DNA from: Candidatus Woesearchaeota archaeon
GTDB lineage: Archaea > Nanobdellota > Nanobdellia > SCGC-AAA011-G17 > GW2011-AR17
Length of the DNA stretch: 64,000 nt
Direction of reading: 5' to 3'
NCBI GenBank assembly: GCA_964411565.1
Contig: CAYPLB010000004.1
Location: 32,500 to 96,499 of the forward strand
Position numbers and translations under genes: made by a program. Positions 4,465-31,132 of the stretch are shown piece after piece (within the stretch, counting starts at the first letter, position 1; every line of letters starts with the position of its first letter). The notes beneath the pieces were generated by a model. That model was not told the origin of the DNA. It saw only the letters and a list, made by a program, of their open reading frames with translations, and ran no database searches.

Positions 4465-5037
4465 TCAAGGTTTTATAGATGGTTTAAAAAGGTTTTGTTC
4501 AAGCCTAAAAAATTCTTTTTCATACCCAGCTGGAAATGTAACATAAATCTTAGTTTTCAAATTAGTACCTTTCAAATATCTTAAAGCCCTTAACTTTTCA
4601 AGTTGCATAGCATCTTTACCAACTAATGCTGTGTAAATATGAATATCATTTAAAGTGTCTGACCTATGGGCTTTTTTTGAAGGATAAATATTTATCATGA
4701 AAGAATGACATTCCCCAAAATGAAGATTTTGACCTCTAATAGCATCAAGTAAATCAGAATATAAATATGGCAATTTTTCTAAATCTTCAAAAAATAAATT
4801 TACAGTTTCATAAGGAGTATAATCTTCTAAGTTTTCTTCTTTCTTAGAAAATAATCTTGAAAATAAACCTCTTTTCTCTGGTATTTTATGGATTATTGTT
4901 CCTGAAAAAATAAATCTTAAGGATTTTATTTTCTTTTCTTCTCTTAACTGTAATAAAAATAGATAAATTCTTTCTGCTATTGTATCAAAGTCTGTATTCT
5001 TGTAAACAATAGTATCTACTTCCTTAAGCTTAGCCAT
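4465..5037 (-). CDS. Hypothetical protein (paralog of 5075..5692)
   Basis: 190-aa ORF; shares motifs with its neighbour (see findings). Confidence 0.75.
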   Translation of the reverse strand: MAKLKEVDTIVYKNTDFDTIAERIYLFLLQLREEKKIKSLRFIFSGTIIHKIPEKRGLFSRLFSKKEENLEDYTPYETVNLFFEDLEKLPYLYSDLLDAIRGQNLHFGECHSFMINIYPSKKAHRSDTLNDIHIYTALVGKDAMQLEKLRALRYLKGTNLKTKIYVTFPAGYEKEFFRLEQNLFKPSIKP

Positions 5038-5074
5038 ATTTGTTTATAAGAAGATATAGTTTAAAAAGTTTCTG

Positions 5075-5692
5075 TTAAGCTACATCTTTATCAATTAAAG
5101 GATATAATAATAAGTTTTGAGTTGGTTCATCAATACTAATGTAAACAATTACATTACCATTAGATAATTTGTTACCTTCTAAATCTTTATAATGAGCTAA
5201 ATTAGATAAACCCTGAGCAGCTATTGAAGTAGTTATGTAAATTCTAATACTTTTTTTTCTTCTATATCTTTCATAATAAGATTTAAGGTCATTAGGAGTT
5301 TGATCTGTTAAATTAAAGGATACTGCAAAGTAAACTTCATGACAGTCACCAAAAGAAGGATTTGAAGATTTTGCAGCATTTAAGTGAGTAGTATAATCAA
5401 AATCTTTTAATTGTACTGAACCCATAGGAGAAATAACATAATCATATTTTTCATAACCTTTAGGAGCATTACCTTTAACTTTTGATTTTCCTAATAAGTT
5501 TGAAAAAAAACCTTTTTTTCGGTAATAGTTATATTTAGGATTTTTTGTAGTTCCATACAAAGTTATTTTTATGTCATTAATTGTCAATCTTTGTTCTGAA
5601 GTTAAGTAATTAATATATTCTTTTACTTCTTTGTATGCTTGAGAATCACAAATATTATCAAAATTTCCATTTGCAATAATTTTGTGTTCCAT
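5075..5692 (-). CDS. Hypothetical protein (paralog of 4465..5037)
   Basis: 205-aa ORF with TATA-like element upstream. Confidence 0.75.
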   Translation of the reverse strand: MEHKIIANGNFDNICDSQAYKEVKEYINYLTSEQRLTINDIKITLYGTTKNPKYNYYRKKGFFSNLLGKSKVKGNAPKGYEKYDYVISPMGSVQLKDFDYTTHLNAAKSSNPSFGDCHEVYFAVSFNLTDQTPNDLKSYYERYRRKKSIRIYITTSIAAQGLSNLAHYKDLEGNKLSNGNVIVYISIDEPTQNLLLYPLIDKDVA

Positions 5693-11884: not shown

Positions 11885-11904
11885 ATAAAAAATAAAAAAG
11901 AAAT

Positions 11905-12363
11905 TTATCTTCTCTTCTTCTTTTTAGCTTTTCTTTTAGGCTTTTTCTTTGCAGCTTTTCTCTTAACTTTTTTCTTAGCTTTCTTCTTCACTTTTTTCTT
12001 CTTCTTAACTTTCTTCTTTGCTGCTTTTCGCTTTACCTTTTTCTTTTTAGCCTTTTTCTTTTTAGCTTTTTTCTTGACCTTTCTTTTAACAGCTTTTTTC
12101 TTAGCTTTCTTTTTCTTAGCTTTTTTCTTTTTCTTTTTGCCGCCTCTAGCCATTTTTGTACAAGCTACATTACCTGCTTTATCGATATAGTATAACATTC
12201 CAGGCTCTCTTTTGACGCCACACTTAACAACAACTTGCTGTTTGAATGAACCCTTCATTCCAGGTCTTTTCATCTTTACTCTAGCAACATCACCCTTCTT
12301 ATTTAAGAAGTATAAGTATCCTGCTGCTCTTTTTATCCCACACTTTACAAGAATTTTTCCCAT
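11905..12363 (-). CDS. Tandem Cc1-like chromatin protein with Lys/Ala/Val-rich histone-H1-like tail
   Basis: Two repeats G[IV]KR..G.LY[FY][LI][ND]K.G[DN]VA..KM.R.G followed by ~80 aa of mostly K/A/V; SD GAGGTG before ATG 12363; Cc1 assignment from memory. Confidence 0.65.
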   Translation of the reverse strand: MGKILVKCGIKRAAGYLYFLNKKGDVARVKMKRPGMKGSFKQQVVVKCGVKREPGMLYYIDKAGNVACTKMARGGKKKKKKAKKKKAKKKAVKRKVKKKAKKKKAKKKKVKRKAAKKKVKKKKKVKKKAKKKVKRKAAKKKPKRKAKKKKRR

Positions 12364-12483
12364 TTTTTTCACCTCGTATATTCTAGTTATATAAACTAGT
12401 AAACATATATAGCCCTTGTTAGTATTTAAACTTTATGTTTTCTCGAGGGAAATCTTATATATTTCAAGAACTTGAGAGTTGTT

Positions 12484-13245
12484 ATGTGGGTACATGATTT
12501 GAATCCAGTCTTGTTAAATTTGGGAGGATTGGAGATAAGATACTATGGATTAGTATATGTAATTGGATTTATTTTGAGCATAGTTTGGTTAATGTTTTAT
12601 CGTCGAGAAATAGACTTAAAAAAAGATGAAGTTTATGACTTTGTTTTTTATTTGATGTTAGGTGTAATTGTAGGATCTAGATTGTTCCATGTTGTATTTT
12701 GGGAGCCTAATTATTATTTGTTGGAACCTTGGAAAATATTTTTTCTTTGGGAAGGAGGAATGGCTTACCATGGAGGTTTAGTTGGAGTTGTCGTTGCTGC
12801 TTATTGGTATTGTAAAAATAAAAAAATAAGTTTTTTGAAAGTTGCAGATATTCTAACAGTTCCTGGAATCTTAGCTTTAGGTTTAGGAAGATTAGCCAAT
12901 TTTGTTAATGGAGAGTTAGTAGGCAGAGTAACTGAAGTTGCTTGGTGTGTGGATTTTGGAGATGAGTCTTGTAGACATCCTTATGTTATTTATAGTGCTT
13001 TGAAAAGGTTTGCTATAGGAGGATTTTTGTGGAGTTTATCGTCAATAAAGTTTAAAGAAGGACTTATATTTTGGAGTGGAATTTTGTTGATGGGAATAGG
13101 TAGATTTGTCCTAGATTTCTATAGAGAAGATATATTATATTGGAGTTTTAGTGTTGGACAGTGGATGTCTTTAGCAATGATTATTGTTTCTTTGTTTGTT
13201 TTAGTAAAGAATTATAGCAAGAGTATGAGAAAAATATTTAAATGA
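12484..13245 (+). CDS. lgt: Prolipoprotein diacylglyceryl transferase
   Basis: IRYYG, GSRLFHV, WEGGMAYHGG, GRLANFVNGELVGR, RHP, GRFVLDFYR. Confidence 0.9.
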   Translation: MWVHDLNPVLLNLGGLEIRYYGLVYVIGFILSIVWLMFYRREIDLKKDEVYDFVFYLMLGVIVGSRLFHVVFWEPNYYLLEPWKIFFLWEGGMAYHGGLVGVVVAAYWYCKNKKISFLKVADILTVPGILALGLGRLANFVNGELVGRVTEVAWCVDFGDESCRHPYVIYSALKRFAIGGFLWSLSSIKFKEGLIFWSGILLMGIGRFVLDFYREDILYWSFSVGQWMSLAMIIVSLFVLVKNYSKSMRKIFK

Positions 13246-13697: not shown

Positions 13698-14069
13698 TTA
13701 ATCAAGAATTTCAAAATTTATTTCATTAATATCAAATGTAGAATAATCAATTGTTAATTCTTCTCCAGGAGAAATGTCTCTTAAAGCAATATTTGATTCT
13801 AAAGGACTTATATTTTTTAAGTTAGGTTTCTTTGAATGATTAATAAAACGAGCATCATCTGTATTTAGAATTAAACTACCTGATTTTAATTCAACTCCAT
13901 ATTTTTCAAAAAAATTCTTAGCCTCCTTTGGAATTTTATTTTTATCTATATTTATATCTATAATTGGATTGTAAACCCAAACCTTTTGACCTTTTTTTAT
14001 ATGTTGATTAGAAACTAGACCAATCCCTTTACCTTTGAATTCCTTTAAATATGTATCAACAACTAACAT
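13698..14069 (-). CDS. Minimal SET-domain protein (lysine methyltransferase-like)
   Basis: GKGIGLV, ARFINHS..PN, ALRDI..GEELTIDY. Confidence 0.9.
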   Translation of the reverse strand: MLVVDTYLKEFKGKGIGLVSNQHIKKGQKVWVYNPIIDINIDKNKIPKEAKNFFEKYGVELKSGSLILNTDDARFINHSKKPNLKNISPLESNIALRDISPGEELTIDYSTFDINEINFEILD

Positions 14070-14070
14070 T

Positions 14071-15846
14071 TTAAGTATAATAATATTTTCCTTCTTTTTT
14101 TTGTTTAGCGTCTAATTGAGAATTTGGTTGGTTAATCCTAGGTCTGCCAAACTCAGGATCAATTCTAAAAGTAATGTCCAGCATCTTTAGAACTTCGTTC
14201 ATACCTTCTTCTTTTGTTAATGGACCTTTAACATGACCTTCTTTACTAGGCTCACCATTGAAAACTAACATAGAATCTCCAATATAATCTATAAATTGAA
14301 TATCGTGATCGACTACAATTGCACAAGTATCTTGTTTGTTCATAAAATCTCTAATAACCTCAGCTACATGAATTCTATCTTCAACATCAATGAAAGCTGA
14401 AGGCTCGTCAAAAGCATACACATCTGCATCTAAAGATAAAGTTATAGCAACAAATACTTTTTGTAGTTCTCCACCAGATAAATCTGCAATATTAGAGTTA
14501 ATTATTTTCTTTAAGTTTAATTTTTCTAAAATATTTTTCTCAAACCAACCACTCTCTTTGTCTTTAGCATATTTGTGTAACCATTCATTTACAGTTCCAG
14601 CTTCAGGTTTAATGTCTTGAGGTTTGTAAGCAATTTTAATAGTAGAATCAATTTTTCCTTTTGTAGGTTTAATAATACCAGCAAGCATTTTCAAGAAAGT
14701 AGTTTTTCCTAAACCATTTCCACCAGTAATAGTTAAAATCTCACCTTTTCTTAACTCACCAGCATTTACTTTTAATTTGAAAGTTTCAAATTCTTTTTCT
14801 AAATCTGGCCAGGAATATAGTACAGGTCTATTTACATATCTTTCAATACCCTTGTTAAATTTAATTTTATAATCTCTAAATCTAACATTGTCGTCAGGAA
14901 GATATCCATCTAAATATTCATTTATACCTCTTCTTACAGATTTAATTTGTGAAACAATACCATAAACAGCTGCGTCACCATATAAAATTTGTAATTGATC
15001 AGAAATGTAGTCTAAAGTTGCTAAGTCATGTTCAACAACCATAACAGAAGTCTCTTCATTTGCTAAAGCTCTAATTATTTTTGCAACCTTAATCCTGTAA
15101 GTAATATCTAAGAAAGAAGCAGGTTCATCAAAGAAGTAAAAGTTTGCATCTCTAAGTAAAGTTGCTGCAATAGCTAGCCTCTGTAATTCTCCTCCAGAAA
15201 GAGCTGAAACTTCTCTATCAAATAATTTTTTTAGATCTAATTTTTCTGAAATTTCTTCAAGTTTATTATTCTCATTAGATTTGTCTAAAAGTTCTTTAAC
15301 AGTCCCTTCAATTTGAGTTGGAATTAAATGTACAGCTTGAGGTTTGTAAGCAATCTTTACTTGTTTAGCTTTTAATTTTTTTAAGAAACTTTGAATCTCT
15401 GATCCCCTGTACATGTTGATAAGTTCGTCAATTTTTGGATCTTCTTTTTTTGAATCTCCAAGATTAGGAGTTAATGAATTTGATAATATTTTTAGAGCAG
15501 TACTTTTACCAATACCATTTCTACCTAAAATACCTAAAACTTTTCCTGAAGAAGGTAAAGGTAAATTGTATAATATAAAAGAATCTTGACCATATCTATG
15601 AATAGGTTTTTGAGTTAGTTTATCAGGAAGCTTAACCATGTGAATAGCTCCAAAAGGACATACATTTACACAAATGCTACAAACACCAGTACAAAGTTCT
15701 TCATTAATCTGAGCTTTGCCATCTGGACCTTTTGTAATAGCTTCCTGTCCTTGTCTATTTAGAGGACACATTCTCATACAAAGATAATCTCCACAAGACA
15801 AGGGATTACATTTATCCTTTTCTACTACAGCTATTCGTTTAACCAT
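14071..15846 (-). CDS. rli: ABCE1/Rli1 ribosome recycling ATPase
   Basis: N-terminal Fe-S cysteines (C..C...C..CP; CTGVC.IC..VCPF), two ABC cassettes (GRNGIGKS, LSGGELQ; GGNGLGKT); true start ATG 15846 (MVKRIAVV). Confidence 0.96.
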   Translation of the reverse strand: MVKRIAVVEKDKCNPLSCGDYLCMRMCPLNRQGQEAITKGPDGKAQINEELCTGVCSICVNVCPFGAIHMVKLPDKLTQKPIHRYGQDSFILYNLPLPSSGKVLGILGRNGIGKSTALKILSNSLTPNLGDSKKEDPKIDELINMYRGSEIQSFLKKLKAKQVKIAYKPQAVHLIPTQIEGTVKELLDKSNENNKLEEISEKLDLKKLFDREVSALSGGELQRLAIAATLLRDANFYFFDEPASFLDITYRIKVAKIIRALANEETSVMVVEHDLATLDYISDQLQILYGDAAVYGIVSQIKSVRRGINEYLDGYLPDDNVRFRDYKIKFNKGIERYVNRPVLYSWPDLEKEFETFKLKVNAGELRKGEILTITGGNGLGKTTFLKMLAGIIKPTKGKIDSTIKIAYKPQDIKPEAGTVNEWLHKYAKDKESGWFEKNILEKLNLKKIINSNIADLSGGELQKVFVAITLSLDADVYAFDEPSAFIDVEDRIHVAEVIRDFMNKQDTCAIVVDHDIQFIDYIGDSMLVFNGEPSKEGHVKGPLTKEEGMNEVLKMLDITFRIDPEFGRPRINQPNSQLDAKQKKEGKYYYT

Positions 15847-15896
15847 GCTTAGAAAGATAAATTGAAGATTTTTAAGTGTTGTGGGAGAGAAAATAC

Positions 15897-16949
15897 TCAT
15901 TTATGATAAACAGTTTGGGAAGGGAAAGCTAAATCTAATTTATTTTTATTAAATTGTTTTAAAATCCCCATATTAACTTCTGTTTGAGTTTCTAAAATAT
16001 TTGAAGATTTCTTAATAAAATAAGTTAAAGAAATGTTCATTGAAGAATCAGCAAACTCTGAAAATGCAACAGTTATTTTTTTCTCTAAATTTTTATTCTT
16101 TGAAGCTATTTCTTTTAAGATTTTCATAGCCTTTTCCATTTGTTTTTCAGTAGTATCATAAGTTAAACCTAAGATAATTTTTACCTTCCTAGAAGGTTCT
16201 AAAGAAATATTCTCAACAGGATTTTCTGAAAACTTAGAATTTGGAATTGTAACAACTCTTCCTTCTAAAGTTACTAACCTAGTACTCCTTAAACCAATTT
16301 CTTTTACTGTACCATCAATACCAGAAATAATAATTCTGTCTCCTATTTTGAAAGGTTTGTCTGCAAAAATAGTAAAACCACCAAATATATTTGAAAGAGT
16401 ATCCTTAGCAGCCATTGCAAAAGCTAAACCTCCAATACCTAAACCAGCTAACAAAGCTCCAACATTGTAACCAGCATTATTTAGTGCAATAATAATAGCA
16501 ATAGTCCATACAATAATCTTTACACCTTTTCTTAAAACAGGTAAAAGTTGATCATCTAAATCAGTTTCAGTTTTTTCAGATAAAGGAATTATGTATTCTT
16601 TAAAGAAAGCATCAAATAATCTTGTTAACAACCAAGCTATATTTGCAATGATCAAAGCTTGAAAAATACTTCCAATTACTGAATCTACAGCTGTTGAAAA
16701 AGATAAAAATCTTAAAGCAAACCAAATTCCTGCTAAAGTCAAAGCTAGAAGAATTGGTTCTTCAATCATATCTATAATAATATCATCAATTTTAGTTTTT
16801 GTTTTTTTAGTTAATTTTTTTAAAACATTAGAAGATATCCAATAAAGAATTTTTCCAGTTAATATAGCACAAAATATTAAAATAAATGCAAATAACCATA
16901 CCTCAATCTGATTACCATAAAAGGTTTTTGTTAAAATATCTTCAAACAT
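15897..16949 (-). CDS. mscS: Small-conductance mechanosensitive channel
   Basis: LLAGLGIGGLAFAMAAKDTLSN, KPFKIGD, GTVKEIGLRST, IPNS. Confidence 0.93.
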   Translation of the reverse strand: MFEDILTKTFYGNQIEVWLFAFILIFCAILTGKILYWISSNVLKKLTKKTKTKIDDIIIDMIEEPILLALTLAGIWFALRFLSFSTAVDSVIGSIFQALIIANIAWLLTRLFDAFFKEYIIPLSEKTETDLDDQLLPVLRKGVKIIVWTIAIIIALNNAGYNVGALLAGLGIGGLAFAMAAKDTLSNIFGGFTIFADKPFKIGDRIIISGIDGTVKEIGLRSTRLVTLEGRVVTIPNSKFSENPVENISLEPSRKVKIILGLTYDTTEKQMEKAMKILKEIASKNKNLEKKITVAFSEFADSSMNISLTYFIKKSSNILETQTEVNMGILKQFNKNKLDLAFPSQTVYHK

Positions 16950-30493: not shown

Positions 30494-31132
30494 TTATTTC
30501 TTTTTTGATCTTTTCTTAGAAGTTTTCTTTTTTACCTTTTTCTTTGAAACTTTCTTTTTGAATTTTTTCTTTTTTAATTTTAGTTTAGGAAGTTTCTTTT
30601 TTCTCTTTTTTTGCTTCTTTACTTTTTTCTTTGAAGAAGATTTCATTAAACCTACAATAGAAGTTATTATTTTTGATTTCTTCTTTGTTTTTTTTGGTTT
30701 TTTAATTTTCTTAATTTTTTTCTTTTCAATTTTTTTTAATACTTCTTTAATAACAGGAATTTGAGATCTTATCTCATTTAATCTTCTTGAGTAATAATCC
30801 ATCCTAATATTATAAATTGATGCTGATAATTTGAATTTCTCAAATCTATCTCTCTGAGTATCCTTCATTAATTGTTTTATGGAAATTCTTTCAGATTGTA
30901 ATTTTTTCAACTTTCTTTCCAAACGAATTCTTCTTAACAAATTATATGAATAAAATGAAATAATTACTAAAATAATAAAAATTATTGAAAATTCTATCAA
31001 AATATTCTGAGAATAAAAATGAATAGTTATATCATCAATTATAGCCATTGATGTTAATGAAATAAAAGTCAAAGCAAATATTACATATAATAAGATTAAT
31101 AAAAAAGTAAGTTTTTTAAAATTGATTTTCAT
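30494..31132 (-). CDS. Membrane protein with coiled coil and Lys-rich C-terminal tail
   Basis: Two N-terminal TM helices; C-terminal ~80 aa dominated by Lys. Confidence 0.65.
   Translation of the reverse strand: MKINFKKLTFLLILLYVIFALTFISLTSMAIIDDITIHFYSQNILIEFSIIFIILVIISFYSYNLLRRIRLERKLKKLQSERISIKQLMKDTQRDRFEKFKLSASIYNIRMDYYSRRLNEIRSQIPVIKEVLKKIEKKKIKKIKKPKKTKKKSKIITSIVGLMKSSSKKKVKKQKKRKKKLPKLKLKKKKFKKKVSKKKVKKKTSKKRSKKK

Follow-up and report, generated by a model that had tools for sequence, protein, structure and literature searches.

A lysine-tailed member of an unnamed family of small, basic, all-beta repeat proteins in a Woesearchaeota archaeon: a putative nucleoid protein

A short gene in the genome of a Candidatus Woesearchaeota archaeon encodes two similar basic repeats followed by a long lysine-rich tail. 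What kind of protein is this, and what might such a tail contribute to it? A preliminary description, made from the DNA of the window (the whole stretch that was analysed, 64,000 nt), took the repeats for a duplicated Cc1-like DNA-binding module and likened the whole protein to linker histone H1. Here, we examine the gene, the origin of its repeats, the evolution of its tail, and the function that these features make most plausible.

A single-gene unit encoding a duplicated basic core

The gene occupies 11905..12363 of the window on the minus strand and reads as 152 codons plus a TAA stop (start ATG 12361-12363, stop 11905-11907). The listed ORF opens upstream of this, at GTG 12372. We take the ATG to be the true start because that GTG falls within the Shine-Dalgarno sequence GAGGTGA (12369-12375, minus strand) and because homologs start with MGK or MAK. 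The Shine-Dalgarno sequence is a 7-nt match, ends 5 nt ahead of the ATG, and is kept in the ortholog from a genome of the same genus. Matches of at least 7 nt are found for ~1.6% of the 756 long ORFs in the genome, and the earlier characterization of this one as perfect is a fair description.

Upstream of the gene, a putative promoter region (12383..12412, minus strand) was read from the sequence. It contains two TATA-like boxes, CTATATATG at 12404-12412 and TTTATATAA at 12387-12395, the proximal one enclosed by an inverted repeat, ACTAGT..AACTAG (12383-12400). The boxes and the inverted repeat are both kept in the same-genus ortholog, and we infer that they have a promoter role; the inverted repeat could be an operator. 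Downstream, a 20-nt spacer (11885..11904) leads from the stop codon to that of a class II ribonucleotide reductase gene. On the strand of our gene it reads ATTTCTTTTTTATTTTTTAT, which resembles an archaeal-type oligo-T terminator signal, and its T-runs are kept in the same ortholog. A scan for bacterial-type terminator hairpins downstream of the gene found none.

The ribonucleotide reductase gene is convergent and the neighbor on the other side, an Lgt gene, is divergent; the gene therefore forms a single-gene unit. The Lgt gene (12472-13245, plus strand) encodes a bacterial-type prolipoprotein diacylglyceryl transferase (Pfam, E 3.9e-61). The order of these three genes is kept in about 10 related genomes, all within the same archaeal family, and there is no universal synteny.

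The host genome (1.0 Mb in 19 contigs, ~28% G+C, estimated complete) carries a single copy of the gene, along with one histone-fold gene and one Alba gene. The gene sequence is present in marine and seawater metagenomes, and the nearest homologs of its product come from Woesearchaeota and Nanoarchaeota metagenome-assembled genomes. Of the 75 codons of the core, 52 are identical to those of the same-genus ortholog, 18 differ synonymously, and 5 non-synonymously, which indicates that the core is under purifying selection. Together with the conservation of the gene in 29 of 41 related genomes, this shows that the gene is real. The family is missing from the other 12, several of them more than 95% complete, and the gene is thus dispensable.

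High expression had been proposed from the Shine-Dalgarno sequence. The strength of that sequence stands, and expression itself is hinted at by the metatranscriptome of the same study, in which a 157-nt contig covers 12190-12346, within the core, with one mismatch. Within 20 kb, metatranscriptome contigs match two genes, this one and the ribonucleotide reductase gene. As an indication of a high transcript level this is a weak hint, given one short contig and possible DNA carry-over.

The product has 152 residues (17.4 kDa, pI 11.45, net charge +74). Its first 75 residues form a core that is basic by itself (net +15, pI 10.3) and holds the two repeats, ILVKCGIKRAAGYLYFLNKKGDVARVKMKRPG at aa 4-35 (12259..12354, minus strand) and VVVKCGVKREPGMLYYIDKAGNVACTKMARGG at aa 44-75 (12139..12234, minus strand). 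They are present as first quoted and are identical at 17 of 32 positions, a level reached in 0 of 200,000 shuffles. The structure prediction that had been proposed as a check gave an all-beta AlphaFold core model with six strands and a pLDDT of 89.9. Three strands are predicted in each repeat, at residues 3-6, 16-20, and 26-30 of the first (pLDDT about 90) and 43-46, 56-60, and 66-70 of the second. Neither a signal peptide nor a membrane segment is present. The overall architecture first described, a duplicated, folded, basic core with a very long lysine tail, is supported.

The core model had no match in the PDB or BFVD. Searching the PDB by single sequence and by profile returned one marginal match, to 3hia, a choline-binding repeat protein (E 0.012). 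A marginal profile resemblance was also seen to the propeller-like DUF5050 (E 0.02-0.15). Both reflect a generic likeness among beta-hairpin repeats, which is no evidence of homology. On the model, the fold of the core is predicted to be a previously undescribed one.

Relation to Cc1 and to an unnamed protein family

CC1 is a 56-aa protein with a pI of 10 (PMC7613761, Table 1; PMC4200833), for which no HMM exists (Hocher et al., PMC7613761). We gathered a Cc1 set with a Cc1 query sequence, which was validated by the names of its database matches, “DNA-binding protein CC1,” from Pyrobaculum, Thermoproteus, and Thermoproteaceae. The resulting alignment describes a single unit of 54-57 aa, KLKFYDIKAKQAFETDxYEVVEKxTARGPMxFAVATSPYTGIKVYRLLGKKK, which has neither an internal repeat nor the GYLYF-DKxG motif that characterizes the repeats of our protein.

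Profile comparisons between the two groups show no relationship in either direction. The comparison of the family profile with the Cc1 profile by hhalign gave a probability of 0.07%, and BLASTP between the two sets gave no alignment at E<=100. In the HMM comparison with Cc1 that the preliminary description called for, reciprocal hmmsearch --max runs returned only scores below 6 bits (best E 3.4 and 0.32, in databases of 89 and 279 sequences), and the positive controls recovered 279/279 and 89/89. Homology to Cc1 is therefore rejected at the sequence and profile level. The idea of a duplicated chromatin protein of the Cc1 type, sharing ancestry with the 6-kDa CC1 of Thermoproteus and Pyrobaculum, retains a general likeness in its favor, since both proteins are small, basic, and beta-rich. 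Against it stand these comparisons, the non-repetitive nature of real CC1 sequences, and a family distribution across DPANN archaea and many bacterial phyla that is unlike that of CC1, and we regard it as extremely unlikely.

The protein is instead one member of a large family of small, basic, all-beta proteins, as yet unnamed. It matches the family profile at E 2.6e-40 over profile positions 1-85, covering both repeats. The core has 27 close homologs (44-89% identity), and a profile search of 1.84 billion representative proteins found 1,329 representatives at E<=1e-3. More than 5,744 family clusters at 90% identity are present in a larger collection, and at least 575 GTDB species encode a member. 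Archaeal hosts include Woesearchaeota, Nanoarchaeota, Aenigmarchaeota, Micrarchaeota, and Altiarchaeales. Bacterial hosts include Myxococcota, Bdellovibrionota, Planctomycetes, Omnitrophota, Marinimicrobia, Elusimicrobia, Nitrospirae, and Spirochaetes. The sampled members are without exception “hypothetical proteins” from metagenomes, with no cultured hosts, and our literature searches turned up no account of the family. Neither Pfam nor NCBIfam gave a match above noise for the full protein, its core, or other members; one family cluster carries a precomputed PF27482 label, a model that is not in the Pfam copy scanned.

The family is built from a unit of ~37 aa with the consensus xEVLxKxGIKRExGYLYFIDKxGNVARxKMARGG (492 units) and three predicted strands. 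Each unit carries the invariant pattern K-R..G.LYF..K.G...R..M.R.G, which the window protein also has; the invariant alignment columns are K11, R12, G15, L17, Y18, F19, M31, R33, G35, G55, Y58, D61, and G74. The common form has two units and 75-90 aa (227 of 273 sampled members). A few members have three to six units or carry units on other domains, and the fusion partners found elsewhere in the family are a DoxX membrane domain, PNP_UDP_1, and zinc ribbons with GAF.

Elsewhere in the same archaeal order, other families carry only a single-unit form of 37-49 aa, such as MGSILIRNAIKRKPGYLYYVDGKGNVCEAKMARGGKKKKKKR. These genes (six loci in six genomes) are conserved across families and are too short for most gene callers. 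Single units presumably dimerise, and their presence in the same order points to the two-unit form being a fused dimer.

We also considered a viral origin for the family. Relatives occur in just 6 of 2.9 million viral contigs, so this origin is unsupported and was rejected. One of these contigs (59.9 kb) encodes an 89-aa family member at 4968-5237 on the plus strand, directly after an 883-aa ORF with weak matches to AAA-ATPase and DUF6371. The product of this ORF, a putative AAA-ATPase, looks replicative, a context that points to DNA.

Make-up and maintenance of the lysine tail

The tail (aa 76-152; 11908..12138, minus strand) was first described as a lysine tail of ~80 aa, and it is real. Its 77 residues comprise 53 K, 6 R, 11 A, 6 V, and 1 P (69% Lys, net +59), and this composition leaves it uninterrupted by acidic or hydrophobic residues over its whole length. 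AF2 draws the tail as one long helix at residues 76-140 with high pLDDT. At 69% Lys, we read this as a possible helical propensity upon charge neutralisation, which is no proof of a stable helix; the disorder first proposed for the tail is an equally tentative reading.

A tail of this size is exceptional in the family. In most members the core is followed by a basic tail of 5-15 aa (median 7 aa), and 12 of the 273 sampled members have basic tails of at least 40 aa. Within this sample the window tail ranks second in length and is by far the richest in K and R (77% K+R). It is a lineage-specific variant that falls outside the short tail typical of the family. Tails of ~40-70 aa occur in six further genera of the same archaeal family, and tails of 8-15 aa in others. 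Long tails of other compositions, with AKKPV or RRTTA repeats, are found in bacterial members of high G+C content. Long basic tails have arisen repeatedly and independently, and their presence in high-G+C members means that AT bias is not their general cause.

Could the tail simply be low-complexity sequence of no function, produced by replication slippage in a genome where AAA is a cheap codon at 28% G+C, with only the 75-aa core mattering? Several features are consistent with this explanation. The tail DNA is an imperfect tandem array (TRF periods of 27, 42, and 69 nt), and tail length ranges from 8 to 77 aa across the genera of one family. Similar tails are also found on unrelated genes, where they break the assembly at contig ends.

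The comparison with the same-genus ortholog speaks against it. That protein has 151 aa, with a 76-aa tail in the same frame and the same KKKKRR end, so that length and frame have been kept between two species at a locus whose DNA is 85% identical. Their tail codons include 41 identical, 18 synonymous, and 17 non-synonymous, with one codon indel. Codon usage also departs widely from what neutrality predicts. Of the lysine codons in the tail, 49% are AAG, versus 18% across the long ORFs of the genome (binomial P = 2.5e-7), and ribosomal-protein genes show no comparable AAG bias. The longest A-run in the tail DNA is 6 nt, whereas simulations with genomic codon usage gave a mean of ~15 nt. A longest run of 6 nt or less was obtained in 0 of 10,000 such simulations and in 0.03% of shuffles of the observed lysine codons. 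Such avoidance of A-runs would follow from selection against poly(A) slippage or stalling, i.e. from a need to make the tail accurately.

The unbroken 77-residue composition and the independent gain of basic tails in high-G+C bacterial members also weigh against slippage without function, which we consider very unlikely. Instead, the tail appears to be maintained by selection, because the ortholog keeps it in frame, A-runs are avoided, and long tails recur in the family.

The same KKKVKRKA-type tracts occur on several unrelated proteins of the genome. A 303-aa protein on contig C6 (23236-24147, plus strand) that we assigned by eye as TFE-like, from an apparent winged helix and zinc ribbon, has a Lys-rich C-terminal tail of ~85 aa with this motif, and an unrelated 155-aa protein on contig C8 ends in a tail of the same type. 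Three membrane proteins of the genome have such tails; the one in the window (30494-31132, minus strand) is a predicted membrane protein of 212 aa with a Lys-rich C-terminal tail of ~80 aa. The ribosomal proteins S3 and L14e carry weaker K-rich tails. With the same kind of tail on membrane, ribosomal, and other proteins, the tail alone does not mark a protein as a nucleoid condenser or DNA binder.

Other ORFs consist almost wholly of KKKVKRKA-type sequence. One of 116 aa stands alone on contig C13 (10993-11343, minus strand), and fragments lie in the last ~210 nt of contig C12 (minus strand) and at 1-191 of contig C17 (plus strand). The repeats apparently broke the assembly where C12 ends and C17 starts. 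These stand-alone ORFs may encode protamine-like proteins.

Putative function and comparison with known systems

We consider it somewhat probable (about 0.55) that the protein binds nucleic acids non-specifically, as architectural or nucleoid proteins do, and a role as a nucleoid protein or condenser is the most plausible reading. This assessment is drawn from charge and context. In favor of binding are the charge of both parts (core +15, tail +59), the repeated gain of basic tails, the single-gene unit, the strong Shine-Dalgarno sequence, and the adjacency of bacterial family genes to uvrA in three phyla. Known DNA-binding proteins such as HU/HupB bear basic tails of this kind. No homology or fold match to a nucleic-acid-binding domain was detected. 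The heterogeneous fusions (DoxX, PNP_UDP_1, GAF with zinc ribbons), the absence of the gene from 12 of 41 relatives, and the lack of complementarity with histone or Alba count against binding, and the choline-binding and propeller-type resemblance (E 0.012 to 0.15) leaves room for another ligand.

The association with uvrA was found in a survey of the best 80 loci, in which the family gene adjoins uvrA on the same strand in 10 of ~31 bacterial loci. It lies 40-190 nt upstream of uvrA at seven loci of Planctomycetes and Omnitrophota and ~325 nt downstream at three loci of Marinimicrobia. The identity of uvrA was confirmed by NCBIfam (E=0). In the window itself, a 609-aa ABC ATPase (14071-15900, minus strand) had co-clustered with these genes through shared ABC domains; it is the ribosome-recycling factor RLI/ABCE1 (NCBIfam E 2e-242), not UvrA.

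DNA is favored over RNA on this context. A rival account holds that the protein binds RNA, either in association with the ribosome or as an RNA chaperone, and that its tail works like the basic extensions of ribosomal proteins. Small size, a strong Shine-Dalgarno sequence, and high charge would suit a protein of the ribosomal type, S3 and L14e of the same genome are K-rich tailed as well, and our data do not separate DNA from RNA binding. However, absence from many complete relatives indicates that the protein is no core ribosomal component, the family gene never lies inside a ribosomal-protein cluster among 103 loci, and the recurrent bacterial neighbor, uvrA, is a DNA repair gene. We judge RNA binding to be unlikely, if still worth weighing.

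An alternative in which the core binds something other than nucleic acid, such as polyphosphate, anionic lipid head groups, or a choline-type or glycan ligand, and the tail anchors it to a polyanion, appears improbable. It could draw on the 3hia and DUF5050 matches, on fusions to membrane proteins such as DoxX, and on the association of the H1-like protein AlgP with polyphosphate granules (PMC9239181). Those matches are below significance, though, and the window protein has neither a signal peptide nor a membrane segment. Where the repeats are fused to membrane proteins, they come after a positive-inside segment and therefore face the cytoplasm. The net positive charge throughout the family and the uvrA linkage suit nucleic acid better.

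Under the nucleic-acid-binding reading, a mechanism can be proposed. The conserved Lys/Arg and aromatic positions of the core would contact nucleic acid irrespective of its sequence. The family's usual basic tail of 5-15 aa has, in this Woesearchaeota-type genus, grown by tandem repeat expansion into a polycation of 77 aa (+59), which would add a strong electrostatic contact that neutralises the charge of DNA or bridges it. By analogy, the tail may act as an electrostatic clamp or bridge like the C-terminal tail of linker histone H1 or mycobacterial HupB. The protein would work beside the histone and Alba of the genome; across the 41 relatives, we found no pattern of complementarity with histone or Alba genes.

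A SET-domain gene of the lysine methyltransferase type lies 1.3 kb away (13698-14069 of the window, minus strand), and its product is a candidate modifier of the tail. We rejected it as a conserved partner: the same-genus genome lacks a SET gene, and other relatives carry theirs on a contig other than that of the tail gene.

A more far-reaching interpretation is possible, and we offer it tentatively. The GYLYF-DKxG unit may define a hitherto unrecognized class of chromatin or nucleoid protein that has an undescribed all-beta fold and is shared between DPANN archaea and six or more bacterial phyla. Here it would be joined to a poly-lysine module that also occurs stand-alone, in protamine-like form, and on TFE. 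The combination would provide a second, polycation-based layer of condensation in a histone-bearing archaeon, a functional linker-histone analog whose origin was independent of eukaryotes.

Should the family bind DNA, it would rank among the most widespread nucleoid proteins yet unnamed, and it would supply part of what is missing from our picture of chromatin in DPANN archaea and several uncultivated bacterial phyla. The contribution of polycationic tails is usually studied only with H1 and HU/HupB. This family offers a natural series, with tails of 8 to 77 aa attached to the same conserved core and with single-unit versions besides, on which that contribution can be tested. The strict avoidance of A-runs in a tract of 53 lysines is a clean natural example, in an archaeon, of selection against poly(A) slippage or stalling.

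Several known systems share parts of this design. Small size and a single-gene unit, both found for the window gene, are among the features used to recognize nucleoid-associated proteins (NAPs; Hocher et al. 2022), and the single-gene criterion served to choose candidate NAPs in that work (PMC7613761). Of the other features, predicted DNA binding is here proposed from charge and context, and high abundance is hinted at by the strong Shine-Dalgarno sequence and one RNA contig. One candidate, WP_019177984.1/AGI86273.1 of Methanomassiliicoccales, is a basic, Lys-rich protein of 70-74 aa from a single-gene operon; it was reported to have a novel predicted fold, to occur also in bacteria, and to make up 1.34% of the M. 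luminyensis proteome (PMC7613761). Compared by description only, it resembles our protein and its family in size, basic and Lys-rich composition, single-gene organization, novel predicted fold, and bacterial presence. Its reported bacterial range differs, comprising Sphingomonadales and Rhodobacterales rather than the phyla of the family described here.

CC1 binds single- and double-stranded DNA without specificity, according to Luo et al. (2007) as cited in PMC4200833, and this is the activity proposed here. It is likewise a small, basic, beta-rich protein encoded by a lone gene. Similar affinity for the two forms of DNA and abundance in the cell also characterize CC1; for the window protein, the one hint of expression is the metatranscriptome contig. 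In contrast to our protein, with its two 37-aa repeats and a tail, CC1 is a single unit of 54-57 aa with no internal repeat. It is confined to Thermoproteales-type archaea, whereas the present family spans DPANN and many bacterial phyla.

Sso7d/Sac7d and Cren7 are chromatin proteins of Crenarchaeota, Lys-rich, all-beta monomers of ~7 kDa in which a three-stranded sheet contacts DNA with aromatic and hydrophobic residues. By analogy, this contact between sheet and DNA may serve as a working model for our core.

For the tail, the closest parallels are linker histone H1, Chlamydia Hc1, mycobacterial HupB/Hlp, and Pseudomonas AlgP, in which a folded domain is followed by a long Lys-rich tail, as here. 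The window tail is more Lys-dense than these and, with its one Pro, has no S/TPKK or PAKKA motifs. In this genome, unlike in the H1-like systems, the same tail motif is also found on TFE, membrane proteins, and stand-alone ORFs. The analogy to H1 first drawn for this protein thus holds for the tail (77 aa, 53 K, net +59) and fails for the core, which is all-beta with six modeled strands, has neither a winged helix nor the HU fold, and gives no match to the winged-helix domain of Pfam Linker_histone. A member of none of these families, the protein is closest in working principle to Sso7d/Cren7 equipped with a tail of the H1/HupB type.
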